6,663 nucleotides of DNA from a virus (Duplodnaviria; Heunggongvirae; Uroviricota; Caudoviricetes): IMG/VR virus record IMGVR_UViG_2648501669_000009, positions 1-6,663 of that record; one strand, written 5' to 3'. The position numbers and the translations under genes are program-made. The notes below the pieces were generated by a model that worked only from the letters and a program-made list of their open reading frames with translations, was not told the origin of the DNA and did no database searches. This document shows, one piece after another, positions 1 to 6,663 of the stretch (position 1 is its first letter; each line of letters begins with the position of its first letter).

Positions 1-191
1 TTGTGCAGTGTGTTGAACGACGCCCATACCACGTCGTTATACAATTCAATAACTGGCTCAATTATTTTCCCGATTGCCCAGACAAAAATTAGAGGGGATA
101 TCGGTATCATTAACACGATAAACAGAATGAGAAACAGAAATTCTGTTGTTCTACTCTTTCGTGGATATTTTTTTCTGAATAATGTGACCAT
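1..191 (-). CDS. Partial CDS (first 63 codons, continues past window start): predicted small membrane protein
   Basis: Reverse-complementing 1-191 gives ATG at 191-189 and an open frame to position 1: MVTLFRKKYPRKSRTTEFLFLILFIVLMIPISPLIFVWAIGKIIEPVIELYNDVVWASFNTLH. It has a basic N-terminus followed by about 25 hydrophobic residues (one likely TM helix). It is absent from the ORF track because no stop lies in the window. AGGAGG (minus, 219-214) sits upstream, separated from the ATG by a GC hairpin. The start is uncertain (an ATG at 110 is also in frame). Confidence 0.4.
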   Translation of the reverse strand, partial: MVTLFRKKYPRKSRTTEFLFLILFIVLMIPISPLIFVWAIGKIIEPVIELYNDVVWASFNTLH

Positions 192-197
192 TCATTA

Positions 198-219
198 CCG
201 CCCTTTCGGGCGGCCTCCT
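198..219 (-). promoter_or_regulatory. Shine-Dalgarno AGGAGG plus a 6-bp GC stem with GAAA loop placed between the SD and the ATG at 191
   Basis: Plus strand 198-213 is ccgccctttcgggcgg (minus-strand RNA CCGCCC-GAAA-GGGCGG) and plus 214-219 is cctcct (minus AGGAGG). The linear SD-to-AUG distance is 22 nt, but about 6 nt if the hairpin folds. Confidence 0.35.
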
Positions 220-253
220 GATGTTTTGAGGGTGCAGGAATCCCTCCGGTTAA

Positions 254-280
254 GGATTTAATAAAAATCACTTCTGATTT
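254..280 (-). terminator. Weak hairpin with U-rich tail downstream of the 319-630 gene (possible partial terminator)
   Basis: Plus 265-280 is aaatca-cttc-tgattt, a perfect 6-bp inverted repeat with a 4-nt loop. On the minus strand it is followed by UUAUUAAAUCC. The stem is A/U-rich, so termination would be weak. Confidence 0.25.
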
Positions 281-318
281 AAATTTTCAGTGTTTTGTTG
301 CCAGGTGATTTATCGCCT

Positions 319-630
319 TTACGCTTCAGCCTTATTTCTCAGCCATACACAAACAGGACCATCTTCAGTGTCATGAATGGAACCAATGAACCAGCCATCG
401 CCCTCTGGTCGTTCCGGTTCCCATGCTGAAATATCAGGGCCATCTGCGTCCAGGTTAAAATCATCTTCATCCATAGTGCAGATAGTCCACTGAAGATTAT
501 TTGCCTCCATCCACGCGTTAAATTCCTCTGTGGAAATATATTCACGACCTGCGCAAAACTTTTCATACTCAGGATGTGTCCAGCAGCCATATTCATCACG
601 TACTACTGGTATTTCTTTAATTTCATTCAT
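319..630 (-). CDS. Hypothetical acidic protein, 103 aa (phage accessory; family not recognised)
   Basis: ORF MNEIKEIPVVRDEY...VWLRNKAEA. Its ATG at 630 overlaps the upstream stop in an ATGAATGA arrangement, with GGGAGA about 6 nt upstream. Very acidic and Trp-rich. Confidence 0.7.
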   Translation of the reverse strand: MNEIKEIPVVRDEYGCWTHPEYEKFCAGREYISTEEFNAWMEANNLQWTICTMDEDDFNLDADGPDISAWEPERPEGDGWFIGSIHDTEDGPVCVWLRNKAEA

Positions 631-877
631 TTCTGTTCTCCCACGTTTTCAGACTTTCACCACAGAACGGACAAAATGAAACCCGCACTGGTGATTTAGA
701 AAATTCACCGGAACGCAACATCACCAAATCAGGGCCGCGAGTTAAACTCTCATTCCAGATTTTGTATATCAGCAGACCTTTTCGCGTCGTGTATTCAGCA
801 TCATGCTCAAGGGATTTTGCCAGTGCCGTACACGGTTCTATCTTGTTGCCATTAATTTGGCATTTTGACTCACTCAC
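623..877 (-). CDS. Hypothetical Cys-containing small protein, 84 aa (putative zinc-binding)
   Basis: The track ORF 623-910 begins at a TTG inside the upstream gene. A GTG at 877-875 is preceded by AGGAGA plus a 6-nt spacer and overlaps the upstream TGA as GTGA, so it is the preferred start. The product (VSESKCQ...FCPFCGESLKTWENRNE) has Cys6, Cys16 and a C-terminal CPFC, a possible split zinc site. Confidence 0.6.
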   Translation of the reverse strand: MSESKCQINGNKIEPCTALAKSLEHDAEYTTRKGLLIYKIWNESLTRGPDLVMLRSGEFSKSPVRVSFCPFCGESLKTWENRNE

Positions 878-1341
878 TGGTTGTCTCCTTTGCGAATCTG
901 TTCCGCACAATGCAACAATGCTTCTGTCACTTCCTTAAGCGTTACAGTATCGGCATCATCCAGTTCTGCAACTTTTGCATGCCTGACAAACGCCGCGCGA
1001 AGCTCGTTAAACGCCACCGCCTGTATATCAGCCAGGAAAGCGTCAGTAGCTGGCGTTTCAGGCTTGAATCCATTTGCATCGCGTGGGCTGATGTCATCGC
1101 TTGTATAAATAAAGCAATCATCCTTAATGAATTTATTTAACCCCACATTCTCCACTGCCAGCGTCGCAAAATTAGCTTCCAGTTCTGCAATGCGTTTGCT
1201 TTGGGCTTCCCGTTCATCCAGCAGTTCCAACACAACCTGAGGTGTGACTTTCATGCGAAATGCCAGCAATTTTTGTGGTGTGGCTGCGATTTTTATTGCT
1301 TCTGCCACATCACGCAGTACCTGGTAATTAATGTTGCTCAC
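874..1341 (-). CDS. Coiled-coil protein, 155 aa, possibly Ead/Ea22-like
   Basis: The track ORF starts at ATG 1368 with no RBS. A GTG at 1341-1339 is preceded by AGGAGG (plus 1348-1353 cctcct) with a 6-nt spacer. The product (VSNINYQVLRDVAEAIK...ELEANFATLAVENVG...) has a predicted coiled-coil N-terminal half. The Ea22 resemblance is from memory only. Confidence 0.65.
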   Translation of the reverse strand: MSNINYQVLRDVAEAIKIAATPQKLLAFRMKVTPQVVLELLDEREAQSKRIAELEANFATLAVENVGLNKFIKDDCFIYTSDDISPRDANGFKPETPATDAFLADIQAVAFNELRAAFVRHAKVAELDDADTVTLKEVTEALLHCAEQIRKGDNQ

Positions 1342-1633
1342 TGGTTGCCTCCTGGAAAATAACTGCATGCCCCAGCTTCTCCGCCAGTGCCAGTTCCGCC
1401 TTAGCGCCTGCTGACCGCTGCCAGCCTTTCAGCATGTAAATCGCATCCACACAACGAATCATTGCCATGCAAATATCCATGTAGTGTGGCTGTGTCAGTC
1501 CGTCCGGAAGTACTGCCGGGTTTAAGACTGTATGCCCTTCCCGTTTCAGTTCCTCTTCCGCCTTGTGAAACGCCTCACGGTTGAAATTTTCATATCCCGT
1601 CATTGGACCGGCGATATAAACCCTCACCCTCAC
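1328..1633 (-). CDS. DUF4406-type protein (nucleoside 2-deoxyribosyltransferase-like fold), 101 aa
   Basis: The N-terminus MRVRVYIAGPMTGYENFN matches the YIAGPMTG signature I associate with the DUF4406 family. GTG start at 1633 with AGGAGG 8 nt upstream; it overlaps the upstream stop as GTGA. Confidence 0.8.
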   Translation of the reverse strand: MRVRVYIAGPMTGYENFNREAFHKAEEELKREGHTVLNPAVLPDGLTQPHYMDICMAMIRCVDAIYMLKGWQRSAGAKAELALAEKLGHAVIFQEATSEQH

Positions 1634-1947
1634 TCCTGTATCCTCCTGTCGAAATAAACATAGTTATTCACCGTGCGCAGCGGCATTTCGAGTTTTTCCG
1701 CTATCTCGCGACGAGAAATACCCTGCTCATGTAGCTTTCGTATCAGCTCAACACTGCTCCAGGGGATTTTTACCGACTGATGAAAATCACCTCGCAATAT
1801 CAGACTGATACCCAGTTCCCGCGCTTTTGTTCTTACTGCCACCTCCGTGCGACCAGTCAGTTTCCCGATATCTTTCACCCGCATGGTGCCAGCACACTGC
1901 CGGAGTATCAGAATTTCAGCCCTGCACCACTTCTTCCAGTTGCTCAC
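1630..1947 (-). CDS. Small DNA-binding protein with helix-turn-helix motifs, 105 aa (alternative start ATG 1884 gives 84 aa)
   Basis: The track ORF 1630-2034 overlaps the upstream gene by 80 nt. A GTG at 1947-1945 lies 5 nt after the upstream TAA and shares the GTGAGCAAC start context of the gene at 1341. HTH-like segments: GKLTGRTEVAVRTKARELGI and ISRREIAEKLEMPLRTVNNYV (NinH-like pattern). The start is not certain. Confidence 0.55.
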   Translation of the reverse strand: MSNWKKWCRAEILILRQCAGTMRVKDIGKLTGRTEVAVRTKARELGISLILRGDFHQSVKIPWSSVELIRKLHEQGISRREIAEKLEMPLRTVNNYVYFDRRIQE

Positions 1948-1952
1948 TGCTG

Positions 1953-2693
1953 TTACTCTCTGGTGGCAGTAATCTGTCGGAGAATATCCCGGTACTTGTT
2001 CAGCTCCCGCAGCGCGGCACAGACTCGCTCCCATTTCCGGATATCACTTTTCGCCCGACGCAGCTCGCGGTTTGCCTGTCGCAGCGATGGCAGAACCAGA
2101 TTATCCACTCGCTTCTCAAGCGGCTGCACAATGTCTGCCACAGTTTCTGTTTTAATATCTTCCTGTGTTGCAGCTTCCTGTACTGGTAACGCAACACATG
2201 CAGGCTGAGGAAAGGCTTTACCATCAGTTTCCGCTACCGATGCCGCTTTCGGCTCTGCTGGTAAATTACCGCCCGGCATGCAGTAGCGAAATTTACCGTT
2301 CTGGTTTACGCGTGCCAGCCGCCCCGTTGCGGTTACTACCGCCAGCGTGGAAGCAACCTTGCGAGTGCTGACACCGAACTTACCCGCCAGTTCCTCACAC
2401 GTTTTAGCTCCCTCCTGACCGATAAACTCAATCATCATGTCAGCGGTAACTTTTCGTTCGACCTCCCTGGTTAGCACATCCTGTACTTCAGATTGTGCTG
2501 GCTGCTCTTCGGCTACCCCTGATTCACCTTCGCCAGCCACACGCCAGGTGTATACGCTTTTATCAACGAAGCCAGCCTTTTTCAGTTCCCACAGCTCGTT
2601 CAGTACTTCTTCACGACTGATATCAAGTCGCGCAGCCAGCTCTACCGACGTGGCTTTTCCCATCGCTTTCAGTGCGTCAAAAACAGTCTCCAT
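1953..2693 (-). CDS. Tandem winged-helix-like protein with C-terminal coiled coil, 246 aa (phage early protein, function unknown)
   Basis: The track start (2744) overlaps the DnaC-like gene. The internal ATG at 2693-2691 has GGGAGG 8 nt upstream and sits 22 nt after the DnaC-like stop. Two similar segments ([30 protein letters not shown] and [34 protein letters not shown]) precede a basic, heptad-like C-terminus. Confidence 0.75.
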
Positions 2694-2715
2694 TAAAATT
2701 TCCTCCCGGTAAAAA

Positions 2716-3462
2716 TTACTTCTCAATACCTGGCTGACCAACATTCGGGCGCCAGCTCTCCCAGTTAAAATTCACCCATCGCCCGCCGTTCATGGTCATG
2801 CGATCCATAATCCGCTCGCCGAGCAATGTTTTCATGGCCTCATAGTTCAGGTTTGTCAGCATTCCCACGCTGCGCATCGACGCTGTCCGGCGATCAACAA
2901 TCTGGTGCAGTACCACCTGCTCGTTTTTCGTCTCGCGCTGAATGCCAATTTCATCAAGAACCAGCAGATCCACTTCGCACAGTTCCCGCAAAAATTTTTC
3001 GCCTGATTGCCCGTCGTCATAGCTGGCGTGTAGAGCACTCATAACATCAGCCACGGTAACCACAATCACTGTCTGGCCATCTTTCAGCAGGCGATTCCCG
3101 ATAGCCGCCGCTAAGTGGTTTTTCCCGGTACCAGGTTTTCCGCTGAATGCGAAATTTGTGCATCCGGTCATCAGTTCATCGGCGATGGATTTCACCTGGC
3201 TCAACGCGTATCGCTGGCCGTCATTCTGCACCTGGTAATTCGCAAACGAGCACTTGCGGTGCAACGGCTGGATGCCGGAGCGATTCAGAATTTTTTCCAC
3301 CCGCAACTGACGATTCTGGCGGTTGATCTCCTCGCAACGCTTCTGGCCTTCTGCAAGTTGCCACTCGCGCCACTCGTCCACTGTTCGGTATGGCGCGGTT
3401 ACATGCTGCGGAGCCAGCTTACGGATGCGTTCAAGAACACCGCCTGTCGCAATATTTTTCAT
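2716..3462 (-). CDS. DnaC-like AAA+ helicase loader (lambda P functional analogue; YdaV-type replication protein)
   Basis: Walker [16 protein letters not shown] and Walker B LLVLDEIG, 248 aa. The ATG at 3462 follows the O-like stop by 6 nt, with a GGGGG SD. Confidence 0.9.
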
Positions 3463-3468
3463 GCTTCG

Positions 3469-4416
3469 TTACCCCCTGAATCCCGGCGGAATTTCGGCGT
3501 CCGGCTCGGAAATATGATTCACGCAACGCTGTACAGGCGAACGCCCCAGACGAATAACCAGCTCATCCCATTTTTCGCGAAGCTTTGACGGGCTCATGAC
3601 GTTTTTTACCCAGAATGGATCCCGCTGTGCCCGACCAAACATTTCGCAAATTTGCCTGTGAGTTCTGCCATCAAGCATCCGCATTGTGCGCACGTCATTG
3701 GCCCATGCAGTCCAGTTGGGTTCTTTCGGTCGCATGATTTCGCCATCATCGCTGGCAGCCTGCTCGTAAAGACTCACGATTCGTCCCCAGATCCACTGCG
3801 CACACGCCAAATCTTCCTGGCTGCCCCACTGGCGTTTTTTCGCACTGAACACAACCGCGTCAGGGTGTCGGGTTAAAAAATCCTGTTCAGCCGTCTGCGG
3901 GTCCGGTTGCGAAGCGTCCGGACGAAAAGATCTTTTATCTGACGGATCAGGTTTTAATACTGACGGATCGGGGCCAACCATCGCCCCCCTAACCGGATGT
4001 TTTTTATCAACGGTTGATCCATCAAAATTTGAGGGGTCAACCGTTGAGGGGTCAATATTTGACGGGTCATTTTTTACCGGGTTAATTTTTCTTTTCGGTT
4101 TATATGCCTCACGCGCCGCCGCTGCTGCTGCTTCGAGTTTTTCCACATTAAGACGGTAGATATTGCTTTCATTACGCCCACCGACCTTACGTTCTTCCTT
4201 CGTCAGCCAGCCGTTCTTTTCCAGTTCTGCTATCGCAGCTTTAACCGTTGATTCACTCTTTGCCCCAATCTGACGACGAATGGTCTCCACTGCAGGCCAT
4301 GACACACCTTCGTCATTGCTGTAATCTGCAAGGCGAGCCATTACTGCCACCCTGGATAAGATCATGCCGGTGAAGGCGCACCCTTCCCAGACAAGACCAT
4401 GAAGCTTGCTGCTCAT
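3469..4416 (-). CDS. Phage replication initiation protein (lambda O-like: N-terminal winged-helix DNA-binding domain, repeat/poly-Ala linker, C-terminal domain)
   Basis: 315 aa. The N-terminal domain is HTH-like (VSWPAVETIRRQIGAKSESTVKAAIAELEKNGWL). The central region encodes EAAAAAARE and DPS repeats (DPSNIDPSTVDPSNFDGSTVD) that coincide with DNA iterons. It sits immediately upstream of the DnaC-like gene. GGAG SD 7 nt before ATG 4416. Confidence 0.85.
   Translation of the reverse strand: MSSKLHGLVWEGCAFTGMILSRVAVMARLADYSNDEGVSWPAVETIRRQIGAKSESTVKAAIAELEKNGWLTKEERKVGGRNESNIYRLNVEKLEAAAAAAREAYKPKRKINPVKNDPSNIDPSTVDPSNFDGSTVDKKHPVRGAMVGPDPSVLKPDPSDKRSFRPDASQPDPQTAEQDFLTRHPDAVVFSAKKRQWGSQEDLACAQWIWGRIVSLYEQAASDDGEIMRPKEPNWTAWANDVRTMRMLDGRTHRQICEMFGRAQRDPFWVKNVMSPSKLREKWDELVIRLGRSPVQRCVNHISEPDAEIPPGFRG
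3940..4074. repeat. Iteron-like direct repeats (core TGA[C/G]GG[A/G]TCA, at least 5 copies) inside the O-like gene, followed by an AT-rich tract: putative prophage replication origin
   Basis: Copies at 3940-3949 tgacggatca, 3961-3970 tgacggatcg, 4030-4039 tgaggggtca, 4045-4054 tgaggggtca and 4060-4069 tgacgggtca, the last three as tandem 15-bp units. Inverted repeats tcaacggttga (4008-4018) and tcaaccgttga (4037-4047). AT-rich tract about 4069-4105. Confidence 0.6.
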
Positions 4417-4440
4417 AAAAAAACTCCGAACACCGTGCTT

Positions 4441-4866
4441 TTAGTGCATCACCAAGGCATTTCCCGCCGGACCACCACGATTCATCTGATTGAAACCAGC
4501 GATCGCCACTGCGACAAAATCATCAGCGTCTCTCACCAGTCGTTCCCGCGTCTCCACCAGCTCCCGAAACCAGGCTGAACTGTGGCTGCGCATTCGGGCC
4601 ACCAGCAGAGGAGGCATTGCTTTTTCGATCGCTGGTAACAACGCCTGAATTTTTTTAACCGCATCAGGGGTGTCTTTCTCCACCCAGCGGAAAATTTTCT
4701 GAGTATTGCGAGCCAGGGCTTCCGGATGGCTGTCGTCATATAATTCCGGGAACGTCATACCCAGCTCAAAATAAGCCCGGGTTATTTCAGCTGCCGGAAC
4801 TTTTTCACCGTCCGGATGCGCCCAGGCATTCATCGCCATGCGGATGTGTTCATGCTTGATTTTCAT
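4441..4866 (-). CDS. ydaT: YdaT-family protein (CII-like regulator of Rac/CP-933P-type prophages), 141 aa
   Basis: N-terminus MKIKHEHI. Its ATG overlaps the ydaS-like stop as ATGA (4866-4863). Second gene of the rightward-early-type operon, directly before the O-like gene. Confidence 0.8.
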   Translation of the reverse strand: MKIKHEHIRMAMNAWAHPDGEKVPAAEITRAYFELGMTFPELYDDSHPEALARNTQKIFRWVEKDTPDAVKKIQALLPAIEKAMPPLLVARMRSHSSAWFRELVETRERLVRDADDFVAVAIAGFNQMNRGGPAGNALVMH

Positions 4867-5165
4867 GAATCAACTCCATCAGATAAGCATGCACTACAAT
4901 CACCTTCAGCATGAACTACATGTGTTTGCCCCAAACGAATGCCGCTCGCATACTCAGGCCAAATAAGCTCCCAATCATGGGGTCGTAGCTCCGCCCTACT
5001 TACTTGGCCTTCCGTCGCAGATTCGATCATAAGGGCGCGGGTTGGAGATATAGCTGCTCGTCCAGACGCCATTTGCGATAAGTAAGATGGCGATACACCA
5101 AGTCTGGCCGCGAATTTCTTAGCATCACCAACCCTCAATGATTTAATAAACTCTTTTAATGTCAT
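4863..5165 (-). CDS. ydaS: YdaS-family Cro-like HTH regulator, 100 aa
   Basis: HTH DAKKFAARLGVSPSYLSQMASGRAAISPTRALMIESAT. First gene transcribed divergently from the repressor gene. GAGGAAGG SD before ATG 5165. Confidence 0.8.
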   Translation of the reverse strand: MTLKEFIKSLRVGDAKKFAARLGVSPSYLSQMASGRAAISPTRALMIESATEGQVSRAELRPHDWELIWPEYASGIRLGQTHVVHAEGDCSACLSDGVDS

Positions 5166-5175
5166 ACCTTCCTCG

Positions 5176-5251
5176 GTTTAGTGTTTTTTTGTGAGTTTAG
5201 TGTTTAATAAACCATTAAGTCAAGTATTTGCTTGTTTAGTGATTACTAAAG
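5176..5251. promoter_or_regulatory. OR-like operator cluster: three 18-bp sites each starting GTTTAGTG
   Basis: Sites at 5176-5193 gtttagtgtttttttgtg, 5195-5212 gtttagtgtttaataaac (GTTTA-N8-TAAAC dyad) and 5234-5251 gtttagtgattactaaag, all in the 97-bp interval between the divergent ydaS-like and repressor genes. Confidence 0.5.
5194..5223 (-). promoter_or_regulatory. PR-like sigma70 promoter for the ydaS-ydaT-O-DnaC operon
   Basis: Minus-strand -35 TTGACT (plus 5218-5223), 18-nt spacer, -10 TAAACT (plus 5194-5199). The operator at 5195-5212 covers the spacer and -10. Confidence 0.4.
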
Positions 5252-5256
5252 ATAAT
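5228..5256 (+). promoter_or_regulatory. PRM-like promoter for the repressor operon; predicted leaderless mRNA
   Basis: -35 TTGCTT (5228-5233), 17-nt spacer, -10 GATAAT (5251-5256). The ATG at 5263 lies 6 nt after the -10 with no SD, so the transcript would start at or next to the start codon. Confidence 0.45.
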
Positions 5257-5262
5257 TACCGC

Positions 5263-5634
5263 ATGCAAAAAAAAGAAATTCGCCGTTTACGTCTCAAGGA
5301 GTGGTTTAAAGATAAAACTCTGCCACCCAAAGAGAAGAGCTACCTATCTCAACTAATGAGTGGGAGGGCCTCGTTTGGAGAAAAGGCTGCCAGAAGAATA
5401 GAGCAAACATACGGGATGCCGGAAGGGTATCTGGATGCGGAATACGCAGAACAACCGGAAGTTTCTCCACCACATGCAGGGTTAACGTCTAATCAACTGG
5501 AATTATTGCAGATTTTTTCAGCCTTCCCTGAGGATGAGCAACGCCAGATAATCAGCGAGTTAAAGCAGAAAAAAGAATCAATGGAAGATCTCATAGCGAG
5601 ATGGATTGCGGCGCAAAAATGCCGCCGCGCCTGA
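5263..5634 (+). CDS. paaR2: XRE-family HTH repressor (CI-like prophage repressor; PaaR2-type regulator of a three-gene TA operon), 123 aa
   Basis: The track ORF begins at GTG 5191, only 25 nt from the divergent gene. The ATG at 5263 leaves room for both promoters. HTH KSYLSQLMSGRASFGEKAARRIEQTYGMPEGYLD. Divergent from the Cro-like gene and followed by an antitoxin-toxin pair. Confidence 0.7.
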   Translation: MQKKEIRRLRLKEWFKDKTLPPKEKSYLSQLMSGRASFGEKAARRIEQTYGMPEGYLDAEYAEQPEVSPPHAGLTSNQLELLQIFSAFPEDEQRQIISELKQKKESMEDLIARWIAAQKCRRA

Positions 5635-5654
5635 GTTATAAAACCGGAGGAAAC

Positions 5655-5846
5655 ATGAATAGAGCCCTTTCACCAATGGTTTCTGAATTTGAAACCATTG
5701 AACAAGAAAACAGTTACAACGAATGGCTGCGTGCGAAAGTAGCAACGAGCCTTGCAGATCCGCGCCCAGCAATTCCCCATGACGAAGTTGAGCGCAGAAT
5801 GGCAGAACGCTTTGCTAAAATGCGCAAGGAACGGAGCAAGCAGTAA
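5655..5846 (+). CDS. paaA2: PaaA2-type antitoxin, 63 aa
   Basis: The track ORF starts at ATG 5601 inside the repressor gene. The ATG at 5655 is preceded by GGAGGA (5645-5650). The 63-aa product (MNRALSPMVSEFETIEQENSYNEWLRAKVATSLADPRPAIPHDEVERRMAERFAKMRKERSKQ) matches the length and character I recall for PaaA2. Confidence 0.8.
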   Translation: MNRALSPMVSEFETIEQENSYNEWLRAKVATSLADPRPAIPHDEVERRMAERFAKMRKERSKQ

Positions 5847-5847
5847 A

Positions 5848-6126
5848 ATGTTACCCGTGTTATGGCTTGAAAGCGCAGATACCGACCTAGATGATATAGC
5901 TAGCTATATTGCTCGTTTCGACATAGATGCGGCTGAACGCTTATGGCAGCGATTAAGGGGTTGTGTGCTGCCGTTATCCGAACATCCGTATTTATACCCA
6001 CCAAGCGACAGAGTACCTGGCTTGCGTGAGATTGTAGCCCACCCTAACTATATAATTCTATACCGCGTAACAACATCAAGCGTTGAAGTAGTAAACGTGA
6101 TCCACGCAAGACGCCAGTTTCCCTAA
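5848..6126 (+). CDS. parE2: ParE-family toxin (ParE2-type), 92 aa
   Basis: ATG 5848 lies 1 nt after the antitoxin TAA (TAAaATG). The product MLPVLWLESADTDLDDIASYIARFDIDAAERLWQRL...ILYRVTTSSVEVVNVIHARRQFP has a ParE/RelE-like layout. The longer track ORF from 5752 is an in-frame upstream extension overlapping the antitoxin. Confidence 0.85.
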   Translation: MLPVLWLESADTDLDDIASYIARFDIDAAERLWQRLRGCVLPLSEHPYLYPPSDRVPGLREIVAHPNYIILYRVTTSSVEVVNVIHARRQFP

Positions 6127-6155
6127 CTTTCACTACCAATAGAAACATAACAACC

Positions 6156-6187
6156 GCAACGACTTTATCAAAAGCGTTGTGTTTGTT
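6156..6187 (+). terminator. Weak putative terminator after the TA operon (tImm-like position)
   Basis: CAACG (6157-6161) pairs with CGTTG (6175-6179) across a 13-nt loop, followed by the U-rich gtttgtt (6181-6187). Short stem, so low confidence. Confidence 0.3.
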
Positions 6188-6197
6188 ACGCTCCGTG

Positions 6198-6238
6198 GTT
6201 TAGTTTTTACTTGACTTAAGTTTAATGTTTATTAAACT
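6198..6238 (+). promoter_or_regulatory. OL-like operator copies plus PL-like promoter for the early-left genes
   Basis: 6220-6237 gtttaatgtttattaaac matches the OR site 5195-5212 at 16 of 18 positions. 6198-6215 gtttagtttttacttgac shares only the left half. -35 TTGACT (6211-6216), 16-nt spacer, -10 TAAACT (6233-6238), the same hexamers as the PR-like promoter. Confidence 0.45.
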
Positions 6239-6417
6239 AAAAATACCAACCCACCCCGCCCCACAGAATGCAGGGCAATACTTCGAGTTACCAGGCAGTG
6301 GTCAGGGGTTAAGTAGCCAGCCCGAGGCGTAAGAACATGACGGCAGGGTTCAACTTTAATAACTATGCAGCAGGTTTTTGTTCCGCTACCCCGGCGTTAA
6401 GGGGAAATGAGGTCAGC

Positions 6418-6573
6418 ATGGATACTATCGATCTTGGCAACAACGAATCTCTGGTGTACGGCGTGTTTCTCAACCAGGACGGTACGTTCACCGCGATGAC
6501 GTATACCAAAAGCAAAACGTTTAAAACCGAATCTGGCGCGCGTCGCTGGCTGGAAAGAAATTCAGGTGAGTGA
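6418..6573 (+). CDS. Small early-left protein, 51 aa (I believe it resembles Rac YdaF, unverified)
   Basis: ATG 6418 with GAGG 5 nt upstream. Product MDTIDLGNNESLVYGVFLNQDGTFTAMTYTKSKTFKTESGARRWLERNSGE. The track start at 6337 has no SD and would give 78 aa. Confidence 0.6.
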   Translation: MDTIDLGNNESLVYGVFLNQDGTFTAMTYTKSKTFKTESGARRWLERNSGE

Positions 6574-6574
6574 T

Positions 6575-6663
6575 ATGGATTTCGACACAATCATGGAAAA
6601 GGCTTACGAAGAATACTTCGAAGGCCTTGCCGAAGGCGAAGAAGCTCTCAGCTTCAGTGAGAG
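6575..6663 (+). CDS. Partial CDS (first 29 codons, runs off window): small acidic early-left protein (possibly YdaG-like, unverified)
   Basis: ATG at 6575, 1 nt after the upstream TGA, with AGGTGAG upstream. MDFDTIMEKAYEEYFEGLAEGEEALSFSE... is open to the window end. Confidence 0.5.
   Translation, partial: MDFDTIMEKAYEEYFEGLAEGEEALSFSE

Follow-up and report, generated by a model that had tools for sequence, protein, structure and literature searches.

A portable intergenic cassette with a putative hairpin-split ribosome-binding site upstream of a DUF4014 gene in a lambdoid prophage

The DNA considered here (the window) is a stretch of 6,663 nucleotides from a virus of the class Caudoviricetes (IMG/VR record IMGVR_UViG_2648501669_000009, positions 1 to 6,663). 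At its left edge the minus strand carries the beginning of a gene of the DUF4014 family, preceded by a leader of about 72 nucleotides in which a very stable, GAAA-capped hairpin stands between the only Shine–Dalgarno (SD) sequence available to the gene and its start codon. The same sequence recurs before several unrelated genes, at thousands of loci in enterobacterial prophages. The leader is very probably a portable linker, and from the comparison of its copies we incline, by a modest measure, to the view that it acts as a hairpin-split ribosome-binding site (RBS), in which the upstream SD sequence would be used and the hairpin would enhance translation. The mechanism would be one of a known kind, and the DUF4014 gene itself is ordinary; what is unusual about the leader is its portability, its abundance and its apparent double role as a linker at the mosaic joints of phage genomes.

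The hairpin and its spacing before unrelated genes

Read 5′ to 3′ on the minus strand, positions 280-181 of the window have the sequence AAAUCAGAAGUGAUUUUUAUUAAAUCCUUAACCGGAGGGAUUCCUGCACCCUCAAAACAUCAGGAGGCCGCCCGAAAGGGCGGUAAUGAAUGGUCACAUU. A sequence-only reading of the window had placed four elements here: a weak AU-rich hairpin, a GAGGG/CCCUC hairpin (hairpin 1), the SD sequence AGGAGG and a GC-rich hairpin (hairpin 2). All four are present where it put them (Table 1), with some corrections. Hairpin 2 does lie between the SD sequence and the AUG, but does not abut the latter, as had been supposed, the hexanucleotide UAAUGA, with an out-of-frame AUG in it, intervening. The AU-rich hairpin, given as 280-254, can indeed form, but it does not belong to the conserved leader: it falls within the untranslated 3′ tail of the upstream module, and only loci with the upstream gene of that module (mEp460, Rac-SA53) share it. 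The 5′ arm of hairpin 1, GGAGG(G), is itself SD-like, and in other phages serves directly as a conventional SD sequence.

Hairpin 2 has a predicted stability of -12.4 kcal/mol (-14.4 kcal/mol if G214 and U197 form a closing pair), and its pairs had a probability of about 1.0 in all five contexts that were folded. Its 16-mer occurs once in the window, compared with an expectation of 0.06, and the 111-nucleotide leader folds with a z-score of -2.88, none of 200 shuffled sequences folding equally well. What we regard as decisive in taking the leader to be more than a chance arrangement is its conservation at thousands of loci. From G214 to A191, the linear distance between SD sequence and start codon is 22 nucleotides; with the hairpin folded it becomes 6, or 5 if G214 pairs with U197, and the earlier suggestion that folding would bring the two to a normal spacing is borne out.

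This geometry was surveyed in 135 distinct cassette contexts, considering open reading frames (ORFs) of at least 45 codons downstream of the stem. The start codon lies 6 nucleotides after the stem in DUF4014 genes (22 contexts, with UAAUGA or UAAGAA as spacer), 7 nucleotides after it in DUF7167 genes (41 contexts; UAGUGAA, UAGUUAA, UAAUGAA or UAGCAAU), 9 nucleotides after it in a phrog_660-like family beginning MAELTK or MTELTK, together with one MQEIKE gene (36 contexts), and 11 nucleotides after it in a Q-like gene (five contexts). Elsewhere the stem is followed by a pseudogene from one of these families, by an insertion or by a convergent gene. In the four families with spacers of 6-9 nucleotides, no GGAG-like or other SD motif was found between stem and start among the 135 contexts; only the Q-like gene has a GGAG of its own. 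The GGAG core of the cassette is kept in 153 of 154 copies. A complementary sample, anchored on the protein, comprised 77 DUF4014 genes, 60 of which have the cassette; the other 17 have a conventional RBS of the form AAAGGAGAGUGAU-GUG/AUG. These 17 are preceded by four different upstream sequences, and in them GGAG is followed after 6 nucleotides by the start codon, which is the effective spacing of the cassette when its hairpin is looped out.

A structure-assisted RBS is therefore plausible on comparative grounds. In such a scheme the cassette would supply the only SD sequence of the DUF4014 gene, AGGAGG, with the hairpin directly behind it and the AUG 6 nucleotides past the stem. The hairpin would stay folded in the initiation complex, looping out 16-18 nucleotides, and a non-functional SD-AUG distance of 22 nucleotides would shrink to 5-6. 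The folded hairpin would also disfavour the out-of-frame AUG at 195-193, only 2 nucleotides from the stem, in favour of the in-frame AUG at 191. We infer both the use of the upstream SD sequence and the enhancement by the hairpin from the arrangement of these parts.

Split RBSs are known from a handful of genes, among them T4 genes 38 and 25 and thrS- and rpmE-like cases. The original accounts for T4 are reportedly those of Gold in 1988, of Nivinskas and colleagues in 1999 and of Malys and Nivinskas in 2009. In gene 38 of T4, RNA structure reduces the SD-AUG distance from 22 to 5 nucleotides, and in gene 25 from 27 to 11 nucleotides, and mutations that destabilize the structure lower initiation, which provides mutational proof of its role (PMC3014915, PMC7297116). 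The leader described here resembles them in having a stable hairpin wholly between SD and start, a linear spacing that is too long, and no alternative SD sequence. It differs in having no sequence relationship to them, in belonging to temperate lambdoid prophages rather than to a T-even phage, in being portable (it stands before at least four unrelated gene families, at thousands of loci) and in being known from sequence alone. If the reading is right, what was found in a few individual genes is here a reusable standard part, present in about half of complete E. coli genomes, which could be a natural test bed for the accommodation of hairpins between the SD sequence and the ribosomal P-site. 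Gene callers and start predictors that rely on RBSs would mis-score these starts, because the SD sequence is 22-25 nucleotides away.

Several other functions for the leader were considered and rejected. Termination-reinitiation at UAAUG, through a mini-ORF, does not fit, because none of the downstream genes is in frame with the AUG at 195-193; moreover, the frames that this AUG opens have no conserved length, and dozens of cassette copies have GUG or GUU in its place. A small ORF running through the cassette to the UAA at 197-195 has no start codon. The known small RNAs (sRNAs) of prophages, namely AgvB, AsxR and the Pas sRNAs, are encoded in other parts of the prophage, those known from enterohaemorrhagic and enteropathogenic E. 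coli lying downstream of PR′ or beside the lysis genes, and Rfam 15 gave no covariance-model match at E <= 1 anywhere in the window (models for AgvB, AsxR, STnc100 and Sok included). In a nut site, just downstream of pL or pR, boxA is followed by a GNRA-like boxB hairpin. The GAAA loop would suit a lambda-type boxB, but there is no boxA-like CGCUCUUA before the hairpin, which is present in a single copy in the window, some 5 kb downstream of the cro-like gene. The 16-mer of hairpin 2 was not found in the searchable literature.

Recurrence of the cassette and its place at mosaic joints

Of 5426 complete E. coli genomes, 2638 have the cassette, at 4683 places in all and with up to seven copies per genome; it was also found in 19 phage records and in at least about 120 contigs in each of two scans of IMG/VR. 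When one genome per species was scanned, it appeared only in E. coli, Shigella flexneri and Citrobacter braakii, and in a contig labelled as a Collinsella metagenome-assembled genome. This last (L149), 3 kb long and binned as Collinsella sp., has a typical E. coli-type cassette with a DUF7167 gene, and is probably a mis-binned fragment of an enterobacterial prophage. The cassette is confined to the nin-like region of Rac-, Qin- and Stx (Shiga toxin)-type prophages of Escherichia, Shigella and Citrobacter, and in all loci examined its orientation matches the direction of transcription.

The limits of the unit are marked by breakpoints of homology. In the window, similarity to Stx phages covers positions 1 to 262 or 268, and similarity to 933W covers 1-185 only; similarity to phage mEp460 covers 191-700, and in that phage a different gene, of 155 amino acids, follows. 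Since the Stx-phage and mEp460 homologies overlap at 191-262, this segment can be regarded as a unit in its own right. Its minimal form, of about 31 nucleotides, consists of UCAGGAGG, the hairpin and UAAUGA, and occurs alone (as a short form) right behind the stop codon of another gene. Most long forms, on inspection, begin with TGAATAATTAA, which provides stops in all three frames right behind the upstream gene. The 5′ half also exists alone (...UUAAUCCUUAACCGGAGG, CCGGAGG-UAUAUCA-AUG), as the ordinary RBS of a gene starting MSNAQKVINAEKY (loci L006, L017, L064 and L066), which gives the full cassette the look of two RBS regions joined together.

The neighbours of 236 copies fall into 24 upstream and 13 downstream sequence clusters, and these occur in free combination. 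In addition, ten phage loci (L003, which is phage ArgO145, L026, L078, L160, L180, L198, L206, L241, L250 and L251) have two cassettes in the same orientation, 1.06-1.7 kb apart, bracketing a module of one to three genes; ArgO145 has three genes between its cassettes, and the second cassette precedes DUF4014. The free combination of neighbours and the paired cassettes together identify the cassette as a mosaic joint of this region of the genome, and as direct repeats the paired cassettes could bring about the deletion or exchange of the module between them. Being common to many phages and lying between interchangeable genes, the cassette would then double as a patch of homology for the reshuffling of accessory genes. 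It also marks precise mosaic joints in the accessory regions of Stx-, Rac- and Qin-type prophages, which makes it useful for tracing the exchange of cargo.

Linker or boundary sequences at the junctions of lambdoid modules are reportedly a theme of the modular theory of Susskind and Botstein and of work by Juhala and colleagues in 2000. The cassette is like such linkers in being a short, conserved intergenic sequence among unrelated neighbours, with breakpoints at its edges and with modules combined combinatorially around it. It is unlike them in carrying a defined translation-initiation structure and, in most long forms, the three-frame stops of TGAATAATTAA. One might go further and suppose that it has been selected as a plug-and-play adaptor, composed of three-frame stops (in most long forms), a structured spacer and a hairpin-split RBS; we put this forward tentatively, as an idea that is rather unlikely to be correct. 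Were it so, translation would be guaranteed for any promoterless accessory gene recombined behind the cassette, and the cassette would offer homology to Red/RecET-type recombinases swapping genes among prophages. The nin region would then house a gene-cassette system, an analogue of integron arrays driven by homologous recombination, with the two-cassette arrays of 1-1.7 kb as its products.

Some individual copies deserve mention. At L140, L146 and L237, foreign sequence (GGAGCAGTCACACATCTG...) begins right after the cassette hairpin, and at L116 an IS1-like end (GGTAATGACTCCAACTTACTGATAGTGT) breaks DUF4014 just past its run of A residues; all four look like insertions at or beside the cassette. 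In copies from Qin-type prophages (L125 and L147, in E. coli ATCC 8739 and Shigella), UAGUGAA replaces UAAUGAA, a single A-to-G change after which a stop (UAG for UAA) and a start-type triplet (GUG for AUG) are both still present; since UAGUUAA is found in other copies, this is probably a coincidence.

How the hairpin might otherwise be explained

A number of observations weigh against a split RBS. If selection maintained the stem, compensatory changes might be looked for, and the six-pair stem is indeed intact, with Watson–Crick or wobble pairs, in 140 of 154 copies. Among 45 distinct variants, though, pairing was kept in 96.1% of cells, compared with 96.0% in shuffles; there was one compensatory change (CCACCC/GGGUGG), along with many C-to-U changes giving wobble pairs and about 12 mismatch cells, and the stem was no better conserved than its flanks. 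This test has little power, because the cassette family is 96% identical and too young for covariation to be informative; a search for divergent DUF4014 loci recovered only sequences at least 90% identical. The hairpin is also kept where it could not bridge an SD sequence and a start codon, namely before the Q-like gene with its own GGAG, before convergent genes and at insertions. In some folds the SD sequence is predicted to pair with an upstream UCCU or UUCCU, its probability of being unpaired ranging from 0.1 to 0.9 according to context. Lastly, the 3′ arm of the stem, GGGCGGU, resembles a mismatched SD sequence 5 nucleotides from the AUG, and would be usable if the hairpin melted.

The main rival explanation is that the hairpin is chiefly an element of RNA 3′ ends, either a decayed intrinsic terminator or a barrier to 3′ exonucleases that stabilizes the upstream cistrons. 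On this view the hairpin would stand between SD sequence and AUG by accident, and translation of DUF4014 would be poor, or would use the weak GGGCGGU once the stem opened. We think this unlikely. A 21-mer with the same core, GGAGRCCGCCCGAAAGGGCGG, recurs in Chloroflexi, Acidobacteria, Oscillospiraceae, Xanthobacteraceae and other unrelated genomes (among loci L134-L152). Most of these matches continue with bases that pair back to GGAG (CCUC or UCUU) and then a U-run, the GGAG pairing with the 3′ flank to lengthen the stem into an ordinary intrinsic terminator; one (L151) is apparently inside a coding region. The recurrence across phyla is, to judge from these sequences, convergent use of a very stable GAAA-capped stem, and the AGGAGG element of the cassette may itself have descended from a terminator stem. 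In Citrobacter braakii and some E. coli copies (L130, L148, L186 and L224), U-rich sequence follows the hairpin, and then a convergent gene or none. The position of the cassette, at the start of the nin region, is moreover what we take to be that of tR2-tR4 in lambda, and its retention before a Q-like gene that has its own SD sequence would also be understandable. The window, on the other hand, differs from intrinsic terminators with a GAAA loop in having no extension of the stem and no U-tract, and in that a start codon follows: what comes after the stem is UAAUGAAU, with just three U residues in 8 nucleotides, and the minus strand gave no terminator call within positions 1-1000. About 100 of the 135 contexts have a start codon 6-9 nucleotides past the stem and no other SD sequence, which is hard to explain if the SD sequence is irrelevant, and the DUF4014 genes that lack the cassette carry a strong one.

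The pairing of the SD sequence in some folds raises the question of whether the leader might be a regulatory switch, in which UCCU (256-253), UUCCU (240-236) and CCCUC (232-228) would compete with GGAGGG (247-242) for the true SD sequence, and downstream translation would be set by folding kinetics, by temperature or by a GGA-binding protein. In the long leader of the window the SD sequence is indeed predicted to be largely paired (probability of being unpaired 0.05-0.3), the long form conserves several SD-like and anti-SD-like motifs, and changes in GAGGG/CCCUC are partly compatible with G-U pairs. We nevertheless consider such a switch improbable: masking varies with context over the wide range given above, with different partners at different loci, and robust sequestration by the upstream UCCU was rejected as a candidate since its prediction varied with context. 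In addition, the short form, without any of these segments, keeps the SD sequence and hairpin, common variants, such as GAUGG (13 copies), disrupt hairpin 1 with no compensating change, and Rfam has no match. It is no less doubtful that the cassette is simply a neutral scar, a shared patch kept by homologous recombination between prophages, with a hairpin that has no selected role. Its narrow and recent distribution, its 96% identity without excess conservation of the stem, and its freely combined contexts are what such a scar would show; but four gene families rely on the cassette for their only SD sequence, with an effective spacing that stays constant, its GGAG core hardly varies, and the orientation is always with transcription in the loci examined. 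A hairpin-split RBS is the reading that we prefer to all of these.

The DUF4014 gene and its surroundings

From the minus-strand ATG at 191-189 a reading frame extends without a stop through position 1 of the window, giving 63 codons (MVTLFRKKYPRKSRTTEFLFLILFIVLMIPISPLIFVWAIGKIIEPVIELYNDVVWASFNTLH). The ORF had been noticed from the sequence as a partial, unlisted one; it is absent from the list supplied with the window because the ORF program leaves out frames that run off the edge. It is partial, as was thought, but it is not new. The last nine codons (NKINPYKES/N and a stop), beyond the left edge, can be read from L124 and more than 60 other loci. When the 63 residues of the window were completed with nine C-terminal residues borrowed from homologous loci (NKINPYKEN), the product matched Pfam DUF4014 (PF13198) over the whole model (1-72 of 72) with 89.9 bits, compared with a cut-off of 23.2 (E = 1.4e-25), and phrog_1832 matched the ORF with E = 4e-45. 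Homologues include L0067 of 933W and annotated 72-codon genes in ArgO145 and phiSTEC1589-Stx1c, and at the RM8385 locus the RefSeq ‘DUF4014 family protein’ WP_000256992.1 begins at the identical codon. The aligned relatives (933W, ArgO145, phiSTEC1589 and one IMG/VR variant) are 86-93% identical to the window ORF. Its N-terminus is at a fixed position in the family, being MVTLFRK or MTTLFRK in genes with the cassette and VPTLFRK, from a GUG, in those with a conventional RBS. The ORF almost certainly belongs, then, to the DUF4014 family, an already annotated family of proteins of unknown function.

Table 1. The leader, the DUF4014 gene and the preceding gene in the window
Feature	Position	Strand	Basis or remark
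DUF4014 gene, first 63 codons and 2 nucleotides of 72 codons	1..191	minus	translation, Pfam, PHROG, homologues, RefSeq
A7 run, DUF4014 codons 6-9 (AGA AAA AAA UAU)	168..174	minus	length varies in other phages
DUF4014 AUG start codon	189..191	minus	N-terminus position shared with homologues
Portable intergenic cassette, long form (~72 nucleotides)	191..262	minus	recurrence and homology breakpoints
Spacer UAAUGA, hairpin 2 to start codon	192..197	minus	holds out-of-frame AUG 195-193, opening just 14 codons
Hairpin 2, CCGCCC(213-208)-GAAA-GGGCGG(203-198)	198..213	minus	folding; six G-C pairs, GAAA tetraloop
Shine–Dalgarno sequence AGGAGG	214..219	minus	sole SD sequence available to the DUF4014 start
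Hairpin 1, GAGGG(246-242)/CCCUC(232-228), 9-nucleotide loop	228..246	minus	-5.8 kcal/mol, pairing probability 0.4-0.7
Weak AU-rich hairpin AAAUCA(280-275)-GAAG-UGAUUU(270-265), then UUAUU	265..280	minus	-2.5 kcal/mol
Upstream gene, 103 amino acids, phrog_1372	319..630, stop 321-319	minus	previous cistron, same operon; function unknown

The predicted product has a basic N-terminus (six K or R and no acidic residue among the first 16), one transmembrane helix (approximately residues 17-40, including the hydrophobic segment LFLILFIVLMIPISPLIFV, with a Kyte–Doolittle mean of 2.96 over 19 residues) and a short C-terminal tail. The sequence-only reading had described just such a small membrane protein, and translation, hydropathy and Pfam agree with it. 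Its further suggestion, that the product might be holin-like, conflicts with the position of the gene in the early-right operon, 3′ of the replication genes and 5′ of hokD, RusA and Q; because the gene is in the nin-like region and outside any lysis cassette, we count a holin as unlikely. The C-terminal 31 residues have three positive and four negative charges, and this, with a single transmembrane helix, is too generic to mark a holin. The other suggestion made there, an exclusion-type protein, is likewise unsupported, no defence-system family in PADLOC-DB having matched DUF4014 at E <= 0.1. No relative was found in the PDB and no meaningful match in NCBIfam; the name ‘DUF4014’ itself was not found in the searchable literature. 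Two odd names have been propagated, ‘putative sugar acetyl transferase inhibitor’ (ArgO145, KY914478) and, for phrog_1832, ‘released from the phage upon host infection’ (NC_049918), and evidence in support of either was not found.

Overlapping the gene on the other strand is an ORF of 86 amino acids (1-261, with a TTG start), which would undermine this account if it were the real gene and the minus frame its shadow. That frame is open in every homologue examined, and substitutions hit its third codon positions equally, since the two frames share their wobble positions; for the same reason a codon-position test could not separate the two, and the decision rests on context and Pfam. The plus-strand ORF has no Pfam match and no consistent start, and it stays open through unrelated flanks at different loci. 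The window edge accounts for its TTG at position 1, the ORF runs against the direction of the operon, and the window has no promoter-like site 5′ of it, the sole plus-strand site called within 1-1000 (817-844) being downstream. The minus frame, by contrast, has an SD sequence, a conserved start position, a Pfam model and a RefSeq annotation. The plus-strand ORF appears to be an antisense shadow; the notion that it is a gene is effectively refuted, and we find it scarcely credible.

The run of seven A residues early in DUF4014 is reduced to six in 19 copies of a hairpin-anchored IMG/VR sample (for example L021, L066, L075 and L123), 16 of which are identical across the 240 nucleotides compared. 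The reading frame shifts after codon 7, and the remainder of the protein is then in frame with the cassette's own AUG, but behind a UAG. A widespread pseudogene allele, a sequencing error in the homopolymer and a site of -1 slippage (A AAA AAU) are all conceivable explanations of the shorter run.

The minus strand of the window is a single operon. It begins with genes for YdaS (Cro-like), YdaT, an O-like initiator with an HTH_36 domain, an IstB/DnaC-like ATPase and DUF1627, and continues with a helix-turn-helix protein, DUF4406, an Ead/Ea22-like protein and two small proteins, followed by the leader and DUF4014. Within positions 1-1000 no promoter and no terminator was called on this strand. 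The gene just upstream of the leader (Table 1) is annotated as encoding a hypothetical protein in mEp460 and RM8385. Positions 1-886 are 99.3% identical to the E. coli O103 RM8385 locus (L124), the remainder of the window being a mosaic that is about 82% identical or unmatched, and in the related RM8385 prophage the operon continues beyond DUF4014 with DUF551, hokD, DUF968, RusA and Q. This places DUF4014 between the replication genes and Q, in the nin-like accessory part of the early-right operon of a lambdoid prophage of the Rac/Stx type.

Two features elsewhere in the window may be noted. The gene for the O-like initiator (3469-4416, minus strand) contains a near-perfect palindrome at 4007-4047 (TCAACGGTTGATCCATCAAA / TTTGAGGGGTCAACCGTTGA), with arms of 20 nucleotides that are 90% complementary and separated by 1 nucleotide; by analogy with the location of the lambda origin within O, it is a candidate element of a replication origin. 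Divergent from the YdaS/YdaT operon, the plus strand at 5191-6573 has an ORF of 147 amino acids in the position of a repressor, without a Pfam match, a ParE-like toxin ORF (5752-6126) overlapped by an ORF of 81 amino acids (5601-5846), and a DUF1391 ORF (6337-6573). From its position, the 81-residue product could be the antitoxin to the ParE-like protein, the two forming a putative toxin–antitoxin pair inside the immunity region.

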